This document shows, piece after piece, positions 590 to 56,820 of a DNA stretch of 64,000 nt (position 1 is the first letter of the stretch; every line of letters starts with the position of its first letter). The stretch is from Patescibacteria group bacterium. Lineage in GTDB: Bacteria > Patescibacteriota > Microgenomatia > UBA10105 > UBA927. The stretch is from assembly GCA_049322955.1 (NCBI GenBank), contig JBMOPU010000012.1, positions 472,150 through 536,149 on the forward strand, written 5' to 3'. A program made the translations under genes and the position numbers. The notes under the pieces are model-generated. The model worked only from the letters and a program-made list of their open reading frames with translations. It made no database searches and was not told the origin of the DNA.

Positions 590-1942
590 ATGAAACCCAA
601 AAAACACATCGTTATTCTCGGCGCGGGACCGGCGGGGTTGGGAGCCGCGTGGCGGCTTACGGAGCTTGGCTATAATGACTTCACCGTCTATGAACGGCAG
701 GAATACGTCGGGGGACTCGCCGCATCATTTACCGACGAGCAAGGCTTTACCTGGGATATCGGCGGGCATGTATTGCATTCGCACTTTCCGTATTTTGACG
801 CGGTGTTTAAGAAGGTTCTGCGGGGAGCGTATTTTACGCACCGACGGCAAAGCTGGGTGTGGATTGCCGACCGGTTTGTGCCGTATCCTCTGCAAAACAA
901 TATTCATCGATTACCCGAAACGATGCGGGATGATTGTCTTGCCGGGCTGAGAAAAAGAACGTCGCTTCCGCCGAACAAACACGACTTTGCCTCATGGATT
1001 ACCGCGACGTATGGCGATGGGATAGCCGCACATTTTATGGTGCCGTATAACCGCAAGGTATGGGCATACCCGTTGCAAGATATGGGGTACCGATGGGTTG
1101 CCGATCGTGTTGCACCCGTTGATCTTGTTTCGATAGAAAAAAATATAAAAGTCGGCAGAGATGATGCCGGATGGGGACCCAATGCCGTGTTTCACTATCC
1201 CAAAAAAGGAGGAACCGGCGATATCTGGAAACGAGTGGCAAAACGTTTTGCCTCGCATATCCGCGGCAAAAAAGAAGCGATTCGTATCGATGGAAAAAAG
1301 AAACGGGTGTATTTTTCTGACGGTACAACCGACTCATATGATCTGCTTTTCAGTTCGATGCCTCTTGATCAATTGACCGGCCTTACGACGGGGGATCCGA
1401 CAATAAAAAAAACAACCGCATTGCATCACAGCGGGGTAACTATCGTGGGATTGGGTATGAAAGGAAACATACCGCAAATTCTGCAGAAAAAATGCTGGAT
1501 GTATTTTGCCGATCCGAAAATTCCTTTTTTCCGTGCGACGGTACTCTCCAATTATTCATCCCATAATGCGCCGAAAGGCTGTTGGTCGCTCATGACGGAA
1601 CTTTCTTTTTCCGCAACCGTGCCGCTTCCAAAAGAGAATGTTGCCGACGCCGTCATTCGTGCCGCAAAACGTATCGGTCTTATACCGAATTCTGCCACAG
1701 TGATTGACCGATTTGTTTTCACGACACCCTACGGTTATCCCACGCCGACAATCGAACGAGACGGGATTGTGGATCCGTTGCTTTCACAACTGGAAAAATC
1801 GGATATCTATTCGCGGGGACGTTTCGGGATGTGGAAATATGAAATAAGCAATCAGGATCATACCTTTATGCAGGGAGTGGAATGGGTGGATAGAATGCTA
1901 TTGGGCAAGAAGGAATCACTCTTGAAAAGCGCCGGTAAATAG
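590..1942 (+). CDS. FAD-dependent oxidoreductase, UDP-galactopyranose mutase (Glf)-like
   Basis: N-terminal GAGPAGLG Rossmann motif. GGHVLHSHFPYFD, NRKVWAYP and C-terminal RGRFGMWKYEISNQDH resemble UGM blocks (GAHIFHT.., ..QWGR.., GRLAEYKYYDMHQ). At 450 aa it is longer than E. coli Glf. Confidence 0.5.
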   Translation: MKPKKHIVILGAGPAGLGAAWRLTELGYNDFTVYERQEYVGGLAASFTDEQGFTWDIGGHVLHSHFPYFDAVFKKVLRGAYFTHRRQSWVWIADRFVPYPLQNNIHRLPETMRDDCLAGLRKRTSLPPNKHDFASWITATYGDGIAAHFMVPYNRKVWAYPLQDMGYRWVADRVAPVDLVSIEKNIKVGRDDAGWGPNAVFHYPKKGGTGDIWKRVAKRFASHIRGKKEAIRIDGKKKRVYFSDGTTDSYDLLFSSMPLDQLTGLTTGDPTIKKTTALHHSGVTIVGLGMKGNIPQILQKKCWMYFADPKIPFFRATVLSNYSSHNAPKGCWSLMTELSFSATVPLPKENVADAVIRAAKRIGLIPNSATVIDRFVFTTPYGYPTPTIERDGIVDPLLSQLEKSDIYSRGRFGMWKYEISNQDHTFMQGVEWVDRMLLGKKESLLKSAGK

Positions 1943-2763
1943 TGAATAGTAAAAACACTATGGGAGAAGTACCGCAAAATATCGTGGAACAAAAGGGGTT
2001 GGCTCAGCGTCTGCTGAAGATGGAAACACACGATACATACGATGGGCTGAAAACGGCGATTGAACGCTCCAAAAAAGGATTGGGGACGGCGGTTTTTTGC
2101 AGTCATAATACGAAAAACGATATGTTGGCGGCGGTGATGATGTTAAAAAGCGTGCCGGAATTTGCCGATAAGAAGTTTGTACTCCCCATGAACAGTATGT
2201 TATATAAGGCGTATTGGCCGGGCGAAAAGCTTATGAACGTTACTCTCATTCCCGTTCACTCGCCCGAGGTACGGCGCAAACATGCACTCGCCAAAGAAAA
2301 TCCGAAGTCACGGGAGCTAACGCTTGCAGATCGGATTACCGTACCGAAAGAAGACCATCTTGATGTTGAAGGGTCACTTCAAACGTATCTCAAAGCCGCA
2401 AAAGAGGCGTTGGAAAAAGGGGGCATTGTCGTGGTTGCGCCGCAAGCTCAGGGCAATCTCGATAAAATTGACCTCACCCATCAGCGCAAGGCATTTTCCA
2501 AGTTCAGAAATTATATGGCGAAGTATCCTGGTCTTACGTATTCGGTATTGCCGATAGGCGTTTCGTTTCCGGAGCGGGCAAAGAAAGGACAATCGCAAAA
2601 AGGTGCAAATTTCGGTGAAAAAATGCGCATCGACATCGGCGCCTGCTACGATCAGGAGAAAGTCACCCAAGGCGTATCCCTTGCGGGCGGCAATGCCGAC
2701 CTGTGGATGTACGGGCAAATCGCATCGCTCTTACCGAAGGAAGCGGTGAAGCGACCGGCGTAA
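1942..2763 (+). CDS. Putative acyltransferase (HX4D motif, PlsC/LPLAT-like)
   Basis: The 273-aa ORF has a GTG start that overlaps the upstream stop, with an alternative ATG at 1960. It carries an HNTKND (HX4D) motif and no other recognisable motif. Confidence 0.4.
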   Translation: MNSKNTMGEVPQNIVEQKGLAQRLLKMETHDTYDGLKTAIERSKKGLGTAVFCSHNTKNDMLAAVMMLKSVPEFADKKFVLPMNSMLYKAYWPGEKLMNVTLIPVHSPEVRRKHALAKENPKSRELTLADRITVPKEDHLDVEGSLQTYLKAAKEALEKGGIVVVAPQAQGNLDKIDLTHQRKAFSKFRNYMAKYPGLTYSVLPIGVSFPERAKKGQSQKGANFGEKMRIDIGACYDQEKVTQGVSLAGGNADLWMYGQIASLLPKEAVKRPA

Positions 2764-3486
2764 TTATCGGATATCCTTGTAGCTTTGTTTGCGAAGCGGT
2801 TTTTCGAGAAGCACCACTTGGATAACGGTGGGAACAAGCTCGGTAAGATACTGCCAAAATCTTCCCCGTACCCTTCGGTCGGAATTTTTAATCTCCATGG
2901 CGTCCACATGATGTACCGCTCCGACACGACCGGCCCGTTTTCCGAGATCGGTGTCATAGAGTTCATGGAAATTTTCATTGAATCCGCCGATTTGGTCATA
3001 GACCGATTTTCGTATTGCGGAATTACTGCAACGAAATGTCGCGTTCCGGTAAAAAATAAGGCTTAAAAAGTGGGTGATGCCGAGCGCGGTTCGTACCAAG
3101 AAGTGTTCATGTTCGGCCGCCTTGTGAAACGTATATCCTCCGGATATGGCCGCAACTGAAGGGTGTGATTTAAAATAATCCGCAATTGTTTGTACCCAGG
3201 TAGCGGGTACGACACAGTCGGCTTCGGTAAAGCAAAGAATGGTTCCTTTTGCTTCGGCAACACCTCTGATAAACCCGTAAATTTTGCCTTTTTTCGGCTC
3301 ATTCACGTAGCGGACGCCCGCCTTTTTTGCAACCGTTGCCGTTGCATCGGTTGAATTGCTGTCAACCACGATTACCTCATACGGCACCTTTGCTGATTGA
3401 CGGGTGAGTGCCGCGAGGCATTGGGGGAGTAATGCTTCCTCATTTTTTGCGGGGACGATGACGGATACGACAGGTTTTGCGGCCAT
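2764..3486 (-). CDS. Glycosyltransferase family 2
   Basis: VSVIVPAKNEE...VIVVDSNSTD...CFTEADC is the classic GT2 DXD architecture. The start was chosen at the Met preceding the VSVIVP motif. Confidence 0.8.
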   Translation of the reverse strand: MAAKPVVSVIVPAKNEEALLPQCLAALTRQSAKVPYEVIVVDSNSTDATATVAKKAGVRYVNEPKKGKIYGFIRGVAEAKGTILCFTEADCVVPATWVQTIADYFKSHPSVAAISGGYTFHKAAEHEHFLVRTALGITHFLSLIFYRNATFRCSNSAIRKSVYDQIGGFNENFHELYDTDLGKRAGRVGAVHHVDAMEIKNSDRRVRGRFWQYLTELVPTVIQVVLLEKPLRKQSYKDIR

Positions 3487-3529
3487 AGGAAACTGGATAA
3501 TAGTATCGTAGAATACGGGTGGTCGCAAT

Positions 3530-4669
3530 ATGAAAACACGACAAAAAAACCATCGGGCACTGATGCAATCGGAATTGCGCGCCTGTATGACCGAGTCGGG
3601 GTTTGCCGCAGGAAATCATCACTTCGTAGATCTGTGGGCACGGGACAGTCTGTTTGCCACATTGGGCGCGAATGTCAGCGGCATGACCGCTGAGTCAAAA
3701 AAAACAATTGAAACATTTCTTCGGTATCAGCGGGCAGACGGACTTATCCCGTATCTTATCTTGCGAAGCCGGCACACGATCGGCAAATATTTTAATATCC
3801 ATTCGTTCTACAAAGAGCCCGTCGCGCATTTTCGTTCGCATATGTCGTTTGGTATTGTTCCCGACGGAGGACTGATGACCGTTATCGCCGCGGCGGATTA
3901 TGCCAAAGTCACCCGGGATTACCGTTTTTTGACCAGGCAGTACGACAGACTGCACAAAGCACTTTCCTGGTATGAATCGCGATTCGGTTCCGGGCTCATC
4001 CGCGAATGGTTTCAGTGTGAATGGGCAGACGCATTGCTCAAAGTGGGCAACACGCTTTATACCAATGTTTTGTATTATAAAGCGCTTTCCGATATGGCAT
4101 GGATAGCCGGCAAGGTGAAGAAAACCGCCGATCAAAAACGATTTTTCAATCGCGCGGCGCTGATACGAAAGCACATCAATGAAGCACTGTGGACGGGCTC
4201 CTATTTTGCCGACTGGTATGACTATAAGCGGCAGAATTATTTTGCCGTTCACCCAAATATGCTTGCCGTGCTTTTTGGACTTACGACGTCCGAACAGGCA
4301 AACAGTATTCTTGGATATGCCAAACGGTATACGAACAACGGTTGGGCGATGAAAAACAGTTATCCGGAATATCCCTGGTGGCGAGTCCCGCTCCTGCATC
4401 TTGTGATCGGCATGGGCGATTATCATAACGGTCTTATTTGGTTGCAACCAGGTATTTTGTATGCGGGGGCGCTTCATAAAACAGGGTATCGTGCCGAAGC
4501 GAAAAAAACGCTTCGTATGATCGCCGAAAAGATTACGCTGACGAAAGGAGCGCATGAAGTGTATGAACGAAACGGCACCCCCGTTCGTCGGCGTGTGTAT
4601 CGGTCCGAGCATCCGTTTGCCTGGTCAGCGGGACTCTTTTTGTGGATTTCCTCTATACTAGGGAAGTAA
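3530..4669 (+). CDS. Glycoside hydrolase, (alpha/alpha)6-barrel GDE_C/GH63-like
   Basis: DLWARDSLFATLGA and the overall composition resemble the amylo-alpha-1,6-glucosidase / GH63 six-hairpin glycosidase family. Confidence 0.5.
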   Translation: MKTRQKNHRALMQSELRACMTESGFAAGNHHFVDLWARDSLFATLGANVSGMTAESKKTIETFLRYQRADGLIPYLILRSRHTIGKYFNIHSFYKEPVAHFRSHMSFGIVPDGGLMTVIAAADYAKVTRDYRFLTRQYDRLHKALSWYESRFGSGLIREWFQCEWADALLKVGNTLYTNVLYYKALSDMAWIAGKVKKTADQKRFFNRAALIRKHINEALWTGSYFADWYDYKRQNYFAVHPNMLAVLFGLTTSEQANSILGYAKRYTNNGWAMKNSYPEYPWWRVPLLHLVIGMGDYHNGLIWLQPGILYAGALHKTGYRAEAKKTLRMIAEKITLTKGAHEVYERNGTPVRRRVYRSEHPFAWSAGLFLWISSILGK

Positions 4670-4673
4670 TGAT

Positions 4674-5390
4674 ATGAAACAAACCGTTACGGTAATTATT
4701 CCCGCCCACAACGAAGAACGCACCTTGCCTTCGATCGTTGAGATCGTACGTACGTGGAAGAAAGCCGCTGAAATTGTCGTCGTGGATGACGGTTCTACGG
4801 ATCAGACACATCATAGTGTCCGGCAATTTCGCCCCGATGTACGGGTGATCCGTCATAAAAAAAATGAAGGAAAAGCGACCGCCATGGCCAACGGTATCGA
4901 AAAAAGCCACGGCGAAATCATCATGTTCCTTGACGCCGATACGGTGGGGCTCACGCATAAGGACCTTGATGCCATGATAGCTCCCGTCCTTGCAGGCAAA
5001 GCGGCAATGGTTTTAGGTGCCGCACGGTTTTGGTCGGCGGGCAAGTTCGAACCGTTCACCACCCTCACGGGACAACGCGTCGTGCTCAGAAAAGACGTCC
5101 TGCCGATGGTCTCCGCGATTCGCGGGATCGGGTACGGCGTGGAACTTTTTCTCAATAAAAAATATGAGCATCTACCCGTTGCTACGGTACGACTCCCGCA
5201 TGTGTTTATTTTGGGAAAGCTTGAAAAACAATCATTACCCGATGCGTTGGTTTCCTATATTAAGGAAATACGTGAATTATTGCTCCAGCTTGTTACCCAG
5301 TATGCGGATGAAATCGGTCCGCACGCAAAGCGAATCGTCAAAGAAGTCATCCGATACAGCCTTCGTATTATCGATATGATTCTTTCGTGA
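4674..5390 (+). CDS. Glycosyltransferase family 2 (DPM/GpgS-like)
   Basis: VTVIIPAHNEE...VVVDDGSTD...MFLDAD motifs. Confidence 0.8.
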   Translation: MKQTVTVIIPAHNEERTLPSIVEIVRTWKKAAEIVVVDDGSTDQTHHSVRQFRPDVRVIRHKKNEGKATAMANGIEKSHGEIIMFLDADTVGLTHKDLDAMIAPVLAGKAAMVLGAARFWSAGKFEPFTTLTGQRVVLRKDVLPMVSAIRGIGYGVELFLNKKYEHLPVATVRLPHVFILGKLEKQSLPDALVSYIKEIRELLLQLVTQYADEIGPHAKRIVKEVIRYSLRIIDMILS

Positions 5391-42082: not shown

Positions 42083-43888
42083 TCACTTCACCGTGACGCT
42101 TTTGGCCAGATTTCTCGGCATATCGGGATCAAAACCTCGTTCCATCGTGAGGTAATATGCCATCAGCTGGCCGATCACCACATTGGGAATGATGGTCACT
42201 TCACCCACGTCGGGGACGGGGATATACTCGTCAAATACTTCCTCCCGCACCGGCGAAATACCGATGATATGTGCTCCCCGAGCCTTCATTTCCATCGCAT
42301 TGGCGATAGCGCTCGCGTGATGGATGTCATTGGGTGCGTACACGATACACGTAGCACTTTTGGTAATTAACGCCAGCGGTCCGTGTTTGAGTTCTCCCGC
42401 CGAGACTCCTTCCGCGTGGATATAGGATATTTCCTTTATCTTAAGCGCACATTCAAGTACGGTGCTGTACGATATACCCCGACCTACCACGAAAAGATGC
42501 TCGCTGTTTTTAAGCGTATGCGCGATATCCTGGATTTTTGCGACGGTTTCGTTCTTTAACACCTCACGACAAGCTTTGGCCGCCTGCGCAACAAGTGATT
42601 GCCCGGTGCGGATGTCGCCCCGCATGGCATACGCCATCAGAAGCAGTTGTGCTACCATCGCGGTAAATGCTTTTGTGGAAGCGACTCCTTTTTCCGGACC
42701 CGCTCCTATGGGGAGCGCCATATCGGATGTCCGCCACAGTGACGAATTGACGACATTAACAAGCGAAAGGACTTTGGCATGATTCGCTTTTGCGTGTTTG
42801 ACTACGTCCAAAAGATCCATGGTTTCGCCCGATTGGGATAAAAAGAGCATGACCGAGTCCTTCGGCAGTATGTCGATATGGTGATGCATTTCCGTCGGAC
42901 TGCTCCAGTTGGTTATCTTTTTGGCGACCGTCGCGAAATAATACGAACCGGCCTGCGCCGCATATCCGCTGGTACCGCTACCCACAAGATAAATGCGGGA
43001 AGCGCTTTGCAATACTTTAGCCATCTCGGTTGCCTGGTGGGTTGATTCCGCGGCAATTTCAGTGAGTAATCCCGGCTGTTCATAAATCTCTTTCAGCATA
43101 AAGTACGGGTATTTGCCTTTTTCGGCCTCATCGGCCGTCCACGTGAGCAGTTGTTTCTTGGGTCGCACGCGTTCGCCGGTATAGGCGTTAAAGATATGGA
43201 TGTTTTCGCGCGTGACGACGACCATCTCGTCATCTTCAAGGAAATGTACCTGTTTGGTGTGCGGGAGCAGGGCCACCGGATCGCTTGCGAGGTAATTTTC
43301 CCCGTCGCCGAATCCCACGACCAACGGCGATCCGTTTCGTGCGGCTACCATTTCGTTTGCTGACGTATTGATGACGATGATGGCGTTTAACCCCTCCAGA
43401 TCCTTAAACGTCGCCTGGACGGCCTTGGAAAATGCCGGTGCCGCATCGCGGGGGAGCACGGTGAAATTTTTCAAATATTCTTCGACCAAATGGGCGATCA
43501 CCTCGGTATCGGTTTCGGATACGAATACGTGCCCCTGTTTCTTGAGGCGTTCACGCAGAACTTCATGATTCTCGACGATACCGTTATGGATGACGGCGAT
43601 CGTTTTCGTGCAATCAAGGTGCGGGTGGGCATTTTTGTCCGTTACGCCGCCGTGGGTGGCCCAACGGGTGTGGCCGAAGGCAAGCGCTCCTTCAGGCATG
43701 TCCGTAACGGTCGCTTTGCCGATTTTTCCCGCCTTCTTTTTGACCACTATTTTTTTGTCATTTTCATTCGACGGAACAACCGCGACACCCCAACTGTCGT
43801 AGCCACGATACTCCAGTGTTTTTAGTCCCGTAAGAACAATAGACGGCGCCGATTTTTTGGTACCGATATACCCGAAAATACCACACAT
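42083..43888 (-). CDS. glmS: Glutamine--fructose-6-phosphate aminotransferase
   Basis: MCGIFGY N-terminal Cys-amidotransferase domain and two SIS domains. AAGGAGG lies 8 nt upstream of the ATG. Confidence 0.95.
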   Translation of the reverse strand: MCGIFGYIGTKKSAPSIVLTGLKTLEYRGYDSWGVAVVPSNENDKKIVVKKKAGKIGKATVTDMPEGALAFGHTRWATHGGVTDKNAHPHLDCTKTIAVIHNGIVENHEVLRERLKKQGHVFVSETDTEVIAHLVEEYLKNFTVLPRDAAPAFSKAVQATFKDLEGLNAIIVINTSANEMVAARNGSPLVVGFGDGENYLASDPVALLPHTKQVHFLEDDEMVVVTRENIHIFNAYTGERVRPKKQLLTWTADEAEKGKYPYFMLKEIYEQPGLLTEIAAESTHQATEMAKVLQSASRIYLVGSGTSGYAAQAGSYYFATVAKKITNWSSPTEMHHHIDILPKDSVMLFLSQSGETMDLLDVVKHAKANHAKVLSLVNVVNSSLWRTSDMALPIGAGPEKGVASTKAFTAMVAQLLLMAYAMRGDIRTGQSLVAQAAKACREVLKNETVAKIQDIAHTLKNSEHLFVVGRGISYSTVLECALKIKEISYIHAEGVSAGELKHGPLALITKSATCIVYAPNDIHHASAIANAMEMKARGAHIIGISPVREEVFDEYIPVPDVGEVTIIPNVVIGQLMAYYLTMERGFDPDMPRNLAKSVTVK

Positions 43889-44262
43889 AGAAGCCTCCTT
43901 TGGCAGGTGATCCTATACGATGATAGGAAATAGTACGTTTTGAAGAATGTTGGGAGAGTAACGGACTCCGTTGTTTGTCGTTCTATGCCTCGCATTACTG
44001 CGGGGTTTCTCGCAAACATTGCGGTGGGGAGTGCCACCGAGGGGTTTCCGCAGATACTACTCCTTCCTGGGTTACCCGACTACTGGTTTTCCCATCTCCT
44101 CCCTGAAAACGGGAAGAAGAGAAAGAATGTCCGATTTCTCCCGCCGTGGCGGGAGACCCCTTCCTCGTATCCCTCCTCTCAGTCTGGCTTTGCCGGACAG
44201 TGAGGGCGGGCCACACGCTTATATATTCTCTGGCGAAGCCAGATCCCGCTGTGCGGGACAAT
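43889..44262 (-). promoter_or_regulatory. Long structured 5' leader of glmS; candidate glmS-ribozyme-like element (unverified)
   Basis: A 474-bp ORF-free spacer sits in an otherwise tightly packed genome. The leader-strand sequence contains ACGAGGAAGGGG (cf. the GACGAGGAUGGAGG core of the glmS ribozyme), several GC hairpins and GCGGG/CCCGC pseudoknot-capable pairs. No confident full alignment to the ribozyme was possible by eye. Confidence 0.25.
44229..44243 (+). repeat. Hairpin motif TCTGGC-GAA-GCCAGA (copy A)
   Basis: A perfect 6-bp inverted repeat lies 93-120 nt upstream of the deoxynucleoside kinase start. A degenerate copy, TCTGGC-TTT-GCCGGA, is at 44183-44197. Confidence 0.6.
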
Positions 44263-53700: not shown

Positions 53701-54711
53701 GTGTCTTACGGTTATAGTGTGCAAAAGGTTCTTGATTACGTAAGTTGGGGATTCATCGGACTCCTGGCCCTTCCTACGGTCATGATTATCGCCACATGGG
53801 GAAGTGTCCCCGGCGATATGGGGTACGGTGTCAAACGGGCATTCGAGCAGACCCTCCTTGTTATGGCGCGCCCCTCCTACGATGCGGAAGCCCAACTCAA
53901 CGCCCAATACACCAAACGACGACTCGAGGAAGCCAAGGCGCTTTTGGCCAACAACCAATCATCCGCAGGGTTGGCATACCTGTCGCAACAGGTTACCGCA
54001 ACCAAAAAGTTGATCGAACGGGCACCGACCGCCGAAAAAAAACGCGAAGCGGCCAAAAACTATCTTTCAACGTTAAAAACGGTTTCCAAAGAACTGAAGG
54101 CGCAACAAACAAAGCCGAGGAGCATCGCGGTGAAGACAAAATCAAAGGGCACATTAAGCGGTGCTACGGTTGCGAGTCTGCAGTCTGATTTAGCCCGGCA
54201 AATTCAGGAGATACAAACCCTGCAGACGCAACTGGAGCAACAAGTGAATAGCTCCCCGCAGACACAACAACTGCTGTCACAGCTCTCTGCACAGGAGCAA
54301 CAGCTACGGCAGTTACAACAGCAGGTGCAATCTCAGTCCGTCACCGCCCCGGAACAGGTACAGCAAATCCAATCGCAGATGGAAACGGCTCAGGAACAAA
54401 CCCAATCGATCGTTTCGGAGATCACTACTCCGGAAAACGCGCAGGAATCACAGGGACAGGAAGTCATTGATCTGTCTATTGATAACACCGCAAGTCAGAT
54501 TGATGAAGCAATTGAAGAATTGGAGACTATTGTTGCGGAATCAGCCGATCAACAGCCGGAAATGGAAACAGAAACGGAGATCACCCCTGAGCCATCGGAA
54601 AATGACAACGGCGGAGAAAATAACGGCAACGGCCAGAATGGTAACGGCAACAATAACGCCGATAATAACGGCAACAATAGCGGGGAAAACGGCAACGGAT
54701 CGGAGAACTGA
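53701..54711 (+). CDS. Membrane-anchored Gln-rich coiled-coil protein with Asn/Gly-rich tail
   Basis: TM helix, a long Q-rich heptad region, and C-terminal NGNGQNGNGNNNADNNGNNSGENGNG low complexity. Confidence 0.55.
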   Translation: MSYGYSVQKVLDYVSWGFIGLLALPTVMIIATWGSVPGDMGYGVKRAFEQTLLVMARPSYDAEAQLNAQYTKRRLEEAKALLANNQSSAGLAYLSQQVTATKKLIERAPTAEKKREAAKNYLSTLKTVSKELKAQQTKPRSIAVKTKSKGTLSGATVASLQSDLARQIQEIQTLQTQLEQQVNSSPQTQQLLSQLSAQEQQLRQLQQQVQSQSVTAPEQVQQIQSQMETAQEQTQSIVSEITTPENAQESQGQEVIDLSIDNTASQIDEAIEELETIVAESADQQPEMETETEITPEPSENDNGGENNGNGQNGNGNNNADNNGNNSGENGNGSEN

Positions 54712-54725
54712 TCATCCGATATTTG

Positions 54726-54754
54726 TTGACTCTTGTACCCCTCTGCGATACCAT
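54726..54754 (+). promoter_or_regulatory. Sigma70-like promoter TTGACT-N17-TACCAT
   Basis: It sits about 30 nt upstream of the structured leader in front of csaA-like/proS. Confidence 0.4.
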
Positions 54755-54779
54755 ATCCCTAAGCAAATACACGCGATCG

Positions 54780-54979
54780 TTCCGTGATCCGACCGGAATA
54801 ACCCTTTTTGGGACGCGGCTCTGCCAATAACAGAGACGGGGAATGCCCGTGATAGCTGACAATGAGACGCTCGTCTTGGCGGTGTAAGACGAACGAGATA
54901 AGGTGGTACCGCGAGCATACCCTCGCCCTTATCTACGGGAAATATTATGTTCCGTAGGTGTATGGGGAGGGATTTTTTT
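54780..54979 (+). promoter_or_regulatory. T-box riboswitch-like leader (antiterminator/terminator) upstream of csaA-like-proS
   Basis: AAGGTGGTACCGCGAG at 54899-54915 matches the T-box consensus AGGGUGGNACCGCG in 13 of 15 positions. Immediately 3' lies a terminator, CCCTCGCCC...(inner CTACGG/CCGTAG)...GGGGAGGG + ATTTTTTT at 54921-54979. Its 5' strand, CUCGC, can pair instead with GCGAG of the T-box in an antiterminator. The gene start abuts the U-tract. Confidence 0.5.
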
Positions 54980-55315
54980 ATGGCTGTTTATGATAATTTT
55001 CAAGCGCTTGATATCCGTGTCGGCGTAATCATCGGAGTTGAGGATTTTCCCGAGGCAAAAAAACCGGCGTATAAGCTTACCATCGATTTTGGCCAAGAGA
55101 TCGGTATAAAACGGTCGAGTGCCCAATTGGTCAAACACTATACAAAAGACCTCCTCATGGGTAAAAAGGTATTGGGAGTCGTAAATTTTGCACCACGACA
55201 GATCGGCCCGTTCATTTCCGAAGTGCTGACCCTGGGAGTACCCGATGCCGCCCACGAGTGTGTCTTGATTGTTCCTGATAAAGATGATGCAATAGTTGGA
55301 GGAAAACTTTATTAA
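54980..55315 (+). CDS. tRNA-binding protein CsaA-like (EMAP/Trbp111 domain)
   Basis: MAVYDNFQALDIRVGVI...AYKLTIDFG.EIGIK.SSAQ...Y aligns residue by residue with B. subtilis CsaA (MAVIDDFEKLDIRTGTI...AIKLVIDFGTEIGIKQSSAQ). Confidence 0.85.
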   Translation: MAVYDNFQALDIRVGVIIGVEDFPEAKKPAYKLTIDFGQEIGIKRSSAQLVKHYTKDLLMGKKVLGVVNFAPRQIGPFISEVLTLGVPDAAHECVLIVPDKDDAIVGGKLY

Positions 55316-55359: not shown

Positions 55360-56820
55360 TTGCACCTTTCTATGAAACAACAATTTGAAAAAAAGGAACT
55401 GAAGAAAAAAAGCGACGATTTATCCGCCTGGTACACCGACGTCATTTTGAAAGCAACGATAGCAGATTATGCTCCGGTTAAAGGATGTATGGTCATTCGT
55501 CCGTACGGCTATGCGTTGTGGGAATCCGTACAGGAAGCGTTAAATCGCATGATGAAAAGTGCGGGTATCGAAAACGCGTATTTTCCTCTTTTCATTCCAT
55601 ATTCGCTTCTTGAAAAAGAAAAACAACACGTTGCGGGGTTTTCACCGGAACTTGCGGTGGTCACTATAGGAGGAGGAGAAGAATTGAAGGATCCGTTGGT
55701 GGTGCGACCGACGTCGGAAACCATCATGTATGAAATGTACGGTAAATGGGTGCAGAGCTGGCGGGATCTGCCGGTGCTTATTAACCAGTGGAACAACGTC
55801 GTGCGGTGGGAAAAACGTACCTATCTCTTTTTACGAACGACGGAGTTCCTGTGGCAGGAAGGTCATACCGCCCATGAGACCGAGGAAGAAGCGGTCGCTA
55901 TGGTGATGAAAGCGCTTGACTGGTATCGGCAAGTGTATGAAGACTATTTTGCCGTCCCCGTCGTTATGGGGCAAAAGAGTGAGTCGGAAAAATTCGCCGG
56001 GGCGAAAACCACCTTCACCGTGGAAGCGCTCATGCCGGACGGTAAGGCACTGCAGGGCGGCACCAGTCACAACCTCGGACAAAACTTTTCGAAATCGTTT
56101 GACATCTCCTTCCAAACCCGGGATGGGAAGAGTGATTTTGTCTGGCAGACATCCTTCGGGTTTTCCACCCGGAGTCTCGGGGGATTATTTCTGACGCACG
56201 GGGATGATAGCGGCTTAGTATTGCCCCCCAAAATCGCTTCGATTCAGGCAATCATCATCCCGATTTTTAAGGGTGATGATACGAAGGAAGGGCTCCTTGA
56301 ATACTGCGGCGAAATTCGTGATGCGCTGGTGGGACAGGGTATTCGCGCGAGACTTGACGATCGTGACAGCCAATCGGTCGGAAGAAAGTTTAATGAATGG
56401 GAAGTGAAGGGGGTGCCGATCCGATTGGAAATCGGACCCAAGGAGATGGCGGATAGGGCACTTACCGTTGCCCGTCGTGACACGGGGGAAAAGTCGGTCG
56501 TGGAACGCAAGGAAATGATTCCTACGGTTGAAAAATTGCTGGAAACCATCCAGGAATCGCTTTTTGCAAAGGCCAAAAAACATCTTTCCGACAACACACA
56601 CGAGGTAACGGAATTTGCCGAATTTGAAACGATCATGCAAACAACCCGCGGTTTTATCCGTGCCTTCTGGTGCGAGGAAGCGGCGTGCGAAGCGGCCATA
56701 AAGGAAAAAACCAAAGCAACCACCCGGTGTTTGCCGCTTACGGCGGAAAAAGGAAAAGGGAACTGTGTTCACTGCGGCAAAGAGGCAACCCGAAAGTGGC
56801 TGTTCGGACAGTCCTATTAA
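55360..56820 (+). CDS. proS: Proline--tRNA ligase (archaeal/eukaryal-type class II)
   Basis: WY.DVI.KA.I.DY.PVKGC.V.RPYGY..WE, class-II motifs 2 and 3, and a C-terminal Zn-binding tail (CVHCGKEA). Confidence 0.9.
   Translation: MHLSMKQQFEKKELKKKSDDLSAWYTDVILKATIADYAPVKGCMVIRPYGYALWESVQEALNRMMKSAGIENAYFPLFIPYSLLEKEKQHVAGFSPELAVVTIGGGEELKDPLVVRPTSETIMYEMYGKWVQSWRDLPVLINQWNNVVRWEKRTYLFLRTTEFLWQEGHTAHETEEEAVAMVMKALDWYRQVYEDYFAVPVVMGQKSESEKFAGAKTTFTVEALMPDGKALQGGTSHNLGQNFSKSFDISFQTRDGKSDFVWQTSFGFSTRSLGGLFLTHGDDSGLVLPPKIASIQAIIIPIFKGDDTKEGLLEYCGEIRDALVGQGIRARLDDRDSQSVGRKFNEWEVKGVPIRLEIGPKEMADRALTVARRDTGEKSVVERKEMIPTVEKLLETIQESLFAKAKKHLSDNTHEVTEFAEFETIMQTTRGFIRAFWCEEAACEAAIKEKTKATTRCLPLTAEKGKGNCVHCGKEATRKWLFGQSY

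Follow-up and report, generated by a model that had tools for sequence, protein, structure and literature searches.

A probable tRNA-Pro-sensing T-box with a very short Stem I upstream of csaA-proS in a Patescibacteria genome

The structural rules of T-box leaders derive from Firmicute and actinobacterial examples. In the T-boxes that have been studied the K-turn, the distal Stem I platform and the S-turn are needed for tRNA binding, and transcriptional T-boxes need a long, elbow-binding Stem I for fast capture of the tRNA; Stem II, whose length ranges from 10 to 200 nucleotides (nt), is essential where Stem I is truncated, the K-turn is nearly universal, and Stem III is held to be indispensable (PMC7583486). 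A model of T-boxes with truncated Stem I is available in TBDB, where it has been applied to Actinobacteria only. In this study we compare with these systems a leader found in a 64-kb stretch of DNA (contig JBMOPU010000012.1 of assembly GCA_049322955.1, positions 472,150 to 536,149), referred to below as the window, where it precedes a gene for a CsaA-like tRNA-binding protein and proS, the gene for prolyl-tRNA synthetase (ProRS). An initial annotation of the window, made from the sequence alone, had placed here a T-box antiterminator/terminator switch in a genome of Candidate Phyla Radiation (CPR) type. Both proposals stand: the genome belongs to the Patescibacteria, and the switch is corroborated by a match to the Rfam T-box family RF00230 and by covarying leaders at orthologous positions. 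All features described are on the + strand of the window unless stated otherwise.

Based on sequence comparison, the csaA-proS leader is most probably a functional T-box that senses tRNA-Pro, acting mainly by transcription antitermination, with occlusion of the Shine-Dalgarno (SD) sequence as a back-up. The core of the element is the antiterminator, which contains the discriminator (54899-54931) and is aligned to RF00230 with high posterior probability. It consists of helix A1 (UAAGG 54899-54903 with CCUUA 54927-54931), a 7-nt T-box bulge (UGGUACC 54904-54910) with UGGU at its 5' edge next to A1, and helix A2 (GCGAG 54911-54915 with CUCGC 54922-54926), closed by the loop CAUACC. The T-box sequence, AAGGUGGUACCGCGAG, is where it had been reported, except that it starts at 54900 (to 54915) and not at 54899, and it has one mismatch to AGGGUGGNACCGCG. 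The intrinsic terminator (54920-54979) is a hairpin at 54920-54971 followed by U7 at 54973-54979. Its 5' arm is built from the 3' strands of A2 (CUCGC) and A1 (CCUUA), and terminator and antiterminator are thus mutually exclusive; the alternative pairing with GCGAG (54911-54915), already recognized in the initial annotation, also involves UAAGG (54899-54903). The fold energies are -8.7 kcal/mol for the antiterminator vs -28.6 (about -27 to -29) kcal/mol for the terminator: a weak antiterminator facing a strong competing hairpin implies that the default state of the switch is OFF. As had been noted before, the U-tract directly adjoins the start codon (ATG 54980) of the csaA-like gene; the SD sequence of this gene, GGAGG 54966-54970, is contained in the 3' arm of the terminator.

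Some of the signals in this leader carry no weight by themselves. With up to 2 mismatches the T-box 14-mer has 1 match in the window vs 1.56 expected, and 78 of 100 shuffled sequences also have a match. Likewise, the proposed sigma-70-type promoter TTGACT-N17-TACCAT is present (54726-54754, with the -35 box at 54726-54731, a 17-nt spacer and the -10 box at 54749-54754), and would place the transcription start near 54761, about 7 nt past the -10 box, but a consensus scan taken alone is at the chance level (3 sites in the window vs 3.0 expected in shuffles). Since neither the 14-mer nor the promoter is significant alone, the case rests on the whole element and on its relatives. These chance expectations are what one would anticipate if the element were just a terminator or attenuator in which a T-box-like 14-mer had arisen fortuitously; such an explanation is effectively refuted by the comparative data, and we consider it exceedingly improbable, because RF00230 can be aligned over its full length (model positions 1-219) to 54767-54933, with E-values of 2.7e-6 local and 4.4e-4 for the whole window, because a multi-helix architecture is conserved and covaries in the relatives, and because the leader displays a codon that matches the regulated synthetase. 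The promoter is also recovered comparatively: of the 16 orthologous leaders, which come from Gottesmanbacteria and relatives, 14 have a TTGAnn-16/18-nAnnnT site (mostly TTGACN ... TAnnnT) in the corresponding place.

Orthologous loci (designated L001, L002 and so on) were fetched by ProRS similarity alone, and are therefore unbiased as to RNA. In eight related genome loci (L001, L002, L004-L008, L026) the csaA-like gene sits between leader and proS, and the block GGUGGUACC is found at the equivalent place upstream of the two genes; the same block stands directly upstream of proS in L003, in which csaA is absent, and in the Woesebacteria locus L011. More distant ProRS loci, for example L009 and L015, have no leader. 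Besides the GGUGGUACC block, whose conservation in orthologous proS leaders the initial annotation had suggested checking, the orthologous leaders share the 7-nt bulge, a covarying A2, a covarying specifier hairpin and the terminator. The segment UAAGG-UGGUACC-GCGAG (54899-54915) is invariant in 16 orthologues. The leaders otherwise evolve fast: in L001 the leader is 73% identical to that of the window, vs 96% identity for ProRS. When metagenomes were scanned with a pattern that covers only Stem IIA and the T-box, 120 loci were retrieved, 11 of which are csaA/proS leaders, including 5 new sequences. The architecture is common to the leaders of csaA-proS or proS in 9 genome loci, picked solely for their ProRS similarity, and in 5 unique metagenome loci.

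The structure was initially derived from the sequence of the window, and the MAFFT alignment of 13 distinct leaders used for the analysis of covariation was not fitted to it. In this alignment 91.1% of the cells are paired, vs 25-45% when the 3' partners are slid by 1-3 columns, and compensatory changes occur in 21 of 43 pairs, vs 2-10 in the slid controls; none of 500 shuffles reaches any of these measures. The covarying helices are the basal helix P0 and the specifier hairpin P1 of Stem I, the mini Stem II (P2) and A2, the latter with compensatory changes in 5/5 pairs and 98% of cells paired. A1 and Stem IIA are invariant, and A1 is hence uninformative for covariation. A covariance model derived from the alignment (R1) has a single match in the window, with 120 bits; it scores the proS leaders at 100-147 bits (82 for L026, 47 for L008), a second tier of CPR leaders upstream of other genes at 45-67 bits, and classical T-boxes at 20-40 bits. 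A model-guided alignment of 44 short-Stem-I leaders gives similar figures (89.8% of cells paired vs 22-44% slid, 195 compensatory cells), which are to be read in the knowledge that this alignment is biased in favour of the model structure; we rely primarily on the MAFFT result.

The truncated Stem I domain (54772-54817) is delimited by P0 (CGCG 54772-54775 with CGCG 54814-54817), in which compensatory changes are seen in 4/4 pairs (CGC/GCG, CGU/ACG, CAC/GUG, AUGC/GCAU), and which encloses P1 (54779-54799) and a variable insert hairpin (54802-54812, CCC-UUUUU-GGG). P1 has only 6 bp (GUUCCG 54779-54784 with CGGAAU 54794-54799) and a 9-nt apical loop, UGAUCCGAC (54785-54793); its stem covaries extensively (GUUCCG/CGGAAC, AUUCCG/CGGGAU, GUUUCG/CGGAAC, GCGCCG/CGGCGC, GUUUG/CGAAC, UUGG/CCAA, CCAAAAG/CUUUUGG). 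The loop contains the specifier CCG (Pro) at 54789-54791, followed by the conserved 3' purine, A54792. Read in the CCN frame, the loop encodes Pro in 16/16 leaders, and 16/16 also have a purine after the codon, while no other frame gives a single amino acid throughout; in the other frames (GAU, AUC, UCC, CGA), which we have rejected, either the amino acid changes among orthologues or a C follows. In most leaders the loop reads (A/U)GAUCCGAC, with the variants CACCGAA (L007), UGUACCGAC (L182), AGUCCGAC (L185), UUUCCGG (L008) and CUCCCAA (L011). The specifier triplets originally suggested, CCC near 54809 and at 54856, have to be abandoned: the first would fall beside the insert hairpin, which is dispensable (it is missing in 7 of 13 aligned leaders: L002-L005, L119, L182, L185) and whose stem contains the nearest CCC (54802-54804), and as to 54856, no CCC exists there, the nearest one (54846-54848) being located in the 3' strand of Stem IIA.

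At the same position of the apical loop, the second-tier leaders have AUC upstream of ileS and GCC upstream of alaS. Together with CCN upstream of proS, the codon thus matches the synthetase for three amino acids, which provides independent validation of the specifier. A different type of control would be one in which ProRS or the CsaA-like protein would bind a tRNA-like feature of the leader as a protein operator, in the manner of the thrS autoregulation of E. coli. Although the operon does encode two tRNA-binding proteins, the conserved loop shows the codon CCG and not a Pro anticodon (NGG), such that it complements tRNA-Pro rather than mimicking it, which favours tRNA binding over synthetase mimicry; moreover, L003 keeps the leader without csaA, and the discriminator has the canonical T-box bulge for binding of NCCA. 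Autoregulation by a protein appears, on these grounds, hardly credible.

Downstream of Stem I, the mini Stem II (54819-54835; CUCUG, the 7-nt loop CCAAUAA, CAGAG) directly adjoins Stem IIA. In the MAFFT alignment 100% of its cells are paired, and 3/5 pairs have compensatory changes. Its loop conforms to the consensus YYAAKAA in 14 unique leaders, each of which is CCG/proS: among the loci compared, no leaders other than the CCG/proS ones combine a mini Stem II bearing YYAAKAA with an ultrashort Stem I. A short Stem II as such is not unique, as a 5-bp hairpin is found at the place of Stem II also in one classical leader (L115). The Stem IIA hairpin (54836-54850, with a tail to 54856), in the region known as IIA/B or 'F-box', was placed by the RF00230 alignment: it reads ACGGG-GAAUG-CCCGU followed by the conserved GAUAGC. 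The stem is invariant among the leaders, and the hairpin together with CCCGUnAUAGC is conserved. When a IIB pairing between AAG of the IIA loop and a downstream CUN was tried, it gave one consistent G-C pair and 47.7% of cells paired overall. In the minimum free energy fold Stem III spans 54868-54895, with the outer pairs C54868-G54895 and G54869-C54894 and the helix formed by 54871-54878 with 54885-54892; its flanks are rich in purines, with AAUGAGA ahead of the hairpin and AGAUAAGG after it, as in the T-box arrangement RRRxG-Stem III-AA. Differing hairpins occupy this place in L005, L006, L007 and L026, and there is none in 8 of 16 leaders (L001-L004, L119, L144, L182, L185), which nonetheless keep the purines (AAUGAAG..AAGUAAGG).

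Some variation exists in the expression platform. A hairpin and a U-tract (U5-U7) are found in 16/16 leaders. In the window and in L001, L005, L007, L101, L144, L182 and L185 the SD sequence is in the 3' arm of the hairpin and the U-tract adjoins the AUG, while in 8 of 16 (L002, L003, L004, L006, L008, L011, L026, L119) a separate SD is located 15-150 nt past the U-tract. The first arrangement could be taken to indicate a purely translational T-box as in Actinobacteria, with the hairpin as SD sequestrator, the U-run as a spacer, and tRNA-Pro gating the access of the ribosome; it is also the case that an ultrashort Stem I has so far been tied to translational T-boxes (PMC7583486). The second arrangement is difficult to reconcile with this idea, because sequestration is impossible where the SD is separate, yet the hairpin and the U-tract are kept, and CPR relatives upstream of ileS and alaS also carry a hairpin and U-runs ahead of unsequestered starts. 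Purely translational control is therefore unlikely: the presence of hairpin and U-tract in all 16 leaders, with a separate SD in half of them, identifies termination as the conserved output, and occlusion of the SD is probably a second layer of control in the window genome.

Four leaders (L003 2914-2990, L004 2537-2600, L006 2539-2600, L119 7041-7105) have a different terminator topology. Their closing helix is formed by GGUACC of the T-box bulge (sometimes with the 5' strand of A2) and a downstream GGUACC repeat, which directly precedes U7, and the intact A2 hairpin is enclosed as a three-way junction. Judging from these pairings, the 3' end of the tRNA would in L003, L004, L006 and L119 compete directly with the formation of the terminator. 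In L002, L003, L004, L006, L008, L026 and L119 (A/G/U)UGG still follows the U-tract, the real start being further downstream; in L003 this post-U-tract start opens a 12-codon open reading frame (ORF) whose stop overlaps the proS AUG, and which may be either what is left of an arrangement like that in the window or an upstream ORF that serves for coupling. Attenuation by a leader peptide was considered separately and rejected: the sole upstream ATG is at 54947, within the loop of the terminator and without an SD, and most orthologues apparently lack it.

Several observations weigh against a tRNA-Pro-sensing T-box. First, the Stem I features expected in the initial annotation (K-turn, specifier bulge, distal AG bulge) are absent; Stem I is ultrashort. 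A tandem G.A was sought in the P0/P1 junction of the leaders, and none is conserved: the junction strands are AUC, UAAC or none on the 5' side and AAG, AAA or UAU on the 3' side, and the 5' bulge is missing in L004 and apparently also in L182 and L185. The distal elbow-binding platform of interdigitated T-loops is likewise absent from a P1 of only 6 bp and a 9-nt loop, and so is the S-turn of Stem II (loop E, AGUA/GAA), P2 being made of 5 Watson-Crick pairs and the YYAAKAA loop; a GAA...AGUAGAA S-turn is present in the CPR ileS relatives, unlike in the proS leaders. Second, the specifier ends in G, contrary to the 'C rule'; this rule has been attributed to the S-turn (PMC7583486), and the S-turn is missing from the G-ending proS leader. 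Third, the A2 pair at the bulge is G54911-C54926 and not the canonical G.U steric sensor. In the 44 short-Stem-I leaders the bulge-proximal pair is A-U in 28, G-C in 15 and G.U in 1. Fourth, ARAGORN found no tRNA-Pro gene in the window and about 40 loci (within the window there are only tRNA-Cys and tRNA-Ile); the predicted partner would be a tRNA-Pro with the anticodon CGG or UGG and with A73, the discriminator base of bacterial tRNA-Pro, with which UGGU would be compatible as initially proposed. Fifth, 5 of the 13 aligned leaders come from the pattern that fixes Stem IIA and the T-box, and those columns are partly invariant by construction.

A sixth point is the Rfam score. At gathering thresholds RF00230 reports no T-box in the window; the match described above is obtained with E-value reporting, and its score of 34.9 bits is far under the gathering score of 93. 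The score is low because Stem I is truncated: the alignment has 37 nt in place of 90 Stem I model positions. As a control, the classical proS T-box of Fredinandcohnia humi (Bacillaceae; L050) scores 106.8 bits, and 3 more T-boxes in the same locus score 98.8-105.6 bits, whereas 6 of 9 short-Stem-I leaders tested, ileS and alaS leaders included, score 30.7-49.5 bits, and L003, L008 and L011 have no match at E < 0.01. According to this panel, the RF00230 threshold excludes an architecture rather than marking false positives. The lack of a hit above threshold, which the initial annotation regarded as decisive against a T-box, is thus literally true, but is not a valid refutation when the short-Stem-I leaders are all under threshold.

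The low RF00230 score and the absence of several parts held to be essential in studied T-boxes could also be signs of decay, with the leader being the relic of a T-box that has lost tRNA binding and now works as a constitutive attenuator or a partial terminator. Such a relic is very unlikely, because specifier, following purine, UGGU, bulge and mini Stem II loop are all conserved while the stems covary, in a region where flanking DNA diverges as fast as indicated by the comparison with L001; in particular, a Pro codon would not survive in 16/16 loops of a relic.

If the leader is, as we propose, a T-box that responds to tRNA-Pro, its operation can be envisioned by homology to characterised T-boxes, from which both tRNA binding and the discrimination of the charged state would follow. 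The nascent leader would fold the very short Stem I, showing CCG and the following A in the apical loop, and then the mini Stem II (5 bp, A-rich loop), Stem IIA and Stem III. The anticodon of uncharged tRNA-Pro would pair with CCG, and its free 3' NCCA end with UGGU (54904-54907); the antiterminator (A1 and A2) would be stabilised by the bound tRNA, and RNA polymerase would read through into csaA and proS. With tRNA-Pro charged or absent, the terminator hairpin and U7 would form instead, and transcription would stop at about 54979. As the hairpin buries the SD sequence, read-through RNA that refolds would also be silenced translationally. We suggest that the missing elbow contact, K-turn and S-turn are compensated by the all-G/C codon-anticodon helix in combination with the A-rich loop of the mini Stem II. 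The independence of glyQS T-boxes from the S-turn has been ascribed to their all-G/C helix, GGC:GCC (PMC7583486); by analogy, the all-G/C helix CCG:CGG may make the S-turn dispensable here, and the A-rich loop may supply minor-groove contacts.

The first regulated gene (54980-55315) encodes a CsaA/Trbp111-type tRNA-binding protein of 111 aa (PF01588; NF007495 with 151 bits, cutoff 117), recorded at NCBI as MFZ5535067.1, 'tRNA-binding protein [Patescibacteria group bacterium]'. Trbp111-type proteins contact the tRNA elbow; this is the contact that is missing from the csaA-proS T-box. The second regulated gene, proS, follows as had been annotated, but the gap of 44 nt given for it corresponds to the alternative start TTG 55360; the most likely start is ATG 55372, which is 56 nt past the csaA stop. 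The gene (55372-56820) encodes an archaeal/eukaryotic-type (family I) ProRS of 482 aa (TIGR00408 with 599 bits, cutoff 437; PF09180 ProRS-C_1; MFZ5535068.1), whose nearest relatives, at 82-96% identity, are from Candidatus Gottesmanbacteria or Patescibacteria metagenome-assembled genomes. Upstream of the leader, an ORF at 53701-54711 encodes a Q-rich protein of 336 aa without Pfam match, which ends with a long N/G-rich low-complexity tail (NGNGQNGNGNNN...); tails of comparable N/G/D-rich composition are found ahead of the leader in L001, L002 and L004-L006. Elsewhere in the window, a glmS ribozyme match (RF00234) on the - strand (43962-44230) covers the full model with insertions of 100 nt and 16 nt, and scores 36.6 bits vs a gathering score of 37; it is 74 nt upstream of a bona fide glmS (42083-43888, - strand; TIGR01135, 613 bits), and this CPR window thus has two cis-regulatory RNAs of 'Gram-positive' type, the ribozyme being narrowly missed by threshold-based annotation.

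The second-tier leaders extend these observations to many other CPR genomes, metagenomic ones as well as named ones of Paceibacterota/Nomurabacteria (L083-L200, for example L092 5029-5157, L121 and L088; L204 1312-1443). They have an ultrashort Stem I with AUC upstream of ileS or GCC upstream of alaS, a K-turn (GC-GUU-GA / GA-GC), an S-turn Stem II, often no Stem III, and a hairpin with U-tract. Named relatives of the isoleucyl-tRNA synthetases (IleRS) behind them are found only in Paceibacterota, Nomurabacteria, Pacebacteria and Patescibacteria, and a leader was verified in Candidatus Nomurabacteria RIFOXYB1_FULL_39_16 (GCA_001787205.1, L204 1312-1443). Another candidate, the ileS of Nomurabacteria GW2011_GWA2_41_25 (L201/L202), was rejected, as the argS-ileS gap is 32 nt and contains no leader. 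The IleRS behind the second-tier leaders (L201-L204, gene 1501-5070; P0009-P0138) are about 1,160 aa long and combine PF00300 His_Phos_1 with tRNA-synt_1 domains. One short T-box-like leader (L171, a metagenome contig of Ga0209542 type, about 1214-1339 on the - strand, R1 score 49.5 bits) precedes not a synthetase gene but an adenosine-deaminase-like gene (TIGR01430 with 182 bits, below cutoff). The ileS and alaS leaders share with the proS leader the apical specifier, the GACGGG...CCCGU Stem IIA, AAGGUGGUACC, an optional Stem III and the hairpin with U-tract; all belong to the same superphylum and are under the Rfam threshold. The difference is that the K-turn and the S-turn are retained in the ileS and alaS leaders and lost from the proS leaders, the latter apparently being reduced one step further.

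These results would mean that terminator-type T-boxes with ultrashort Stem I are widespread in the CPR, in forms missed by RF00230 and by TBDB class II, and that a long Stem I is not required for transcriptional T-box control. The window leader and its relatives appear to break four of the published rules at once (long Stem I, K-turn, S-turn, Stem III; PMC7583486), and the proS leaders appear to stay under clear purifying selection in spite of it. Whether the proS leaders of Gottesmanbacteria and relatives are the most reduced natural T-box architecture so far that still acts co-transcriptionally through an intrinsic terminator is a matter on which we find the chances evenly balanced. In that case the core may be as small as about 130-170 nt (from the basal helix to A1) plus the terminator, and the tRNA would be held only by the G/C-only codon-anticodon helix and the NCCA-bulge helix. 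Leaders of this kind offer structural biology and engineering a minimal scaffold from nature, on which the need for individual contacts can be tested. In the literature, full-text searches combining T-box with CPR or Patescibacteria had no result, nor had searches combining it with proS, which is not proof of novelty. In more general terms, threshold-based annotation systematically misses riboregulators of this kind, and a T-box and a near-threshold glmS ribozyme in Patescibacteria bear on the origin and spread of 'Gram-positive' riboregulators.

The position of the proS leader among known T-boxes can be appreciated by comparison with three groups. With the classical Firmicute T-boxes (RF00230, for example L050) it shares the T-box sequence, the 7-nt bulge with UGGN next to A1, an A1/A2 antiterminator opposed by a terminator that reuses its 3' strands, the U-tract and the default-OFF energetics, as well as the Stem IIA region, Stem III with its purine-rich flanks, and a specifier that matches the aminoacyl-tRNA synthetase and is followed by a purine. 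The greatest difference is in Stem I, which in the classical form is about 90 nt long, with K-turn, specifier bulge and elbow-binding double T-loop, and here is reduced to 6 bp and a 9-nt loop; unlike classical T-boxes, the proS leaders also have no S-turn, have G-C or A-U instead of G.U as the A2 base pair, and have a specifier that ends in G. The actinobacterial ileS T-boxes with ultrashort Stem I (Mycobacterium, Nocardia; TBDB class II; PMC7583486) resemble the proS leader in the apical-loop specifier, the absence of the elbow platform, and the conservation of Stem IIA and discriminator. They are, however, translational, with an SD sequestrator and no terminator, whereas the proS leaders have a conserved terminator and U-tract; they keep the K-turn and need a long S-turn Stem II, whereas the proS leaders have no K-turn and a 5-bp Stem II; and they are from another phylum and specific for another amino acid than the window leader (Patescibacteria, Pro). 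Finally, the glyQS T-boxes function, like the proS leader is proposed to do, without an S-turn Stem II and with an all-G/C codon-anticodon helix, to which CCG:CGG would be equal in strength; in the remaining architecture the two are the reverse of each other, as Stem I of glyQS is long, complete with K-turn and elbow platform, and Stem IIA/B is missing there, and the proS leader has Stem IIA and a short Stem I.

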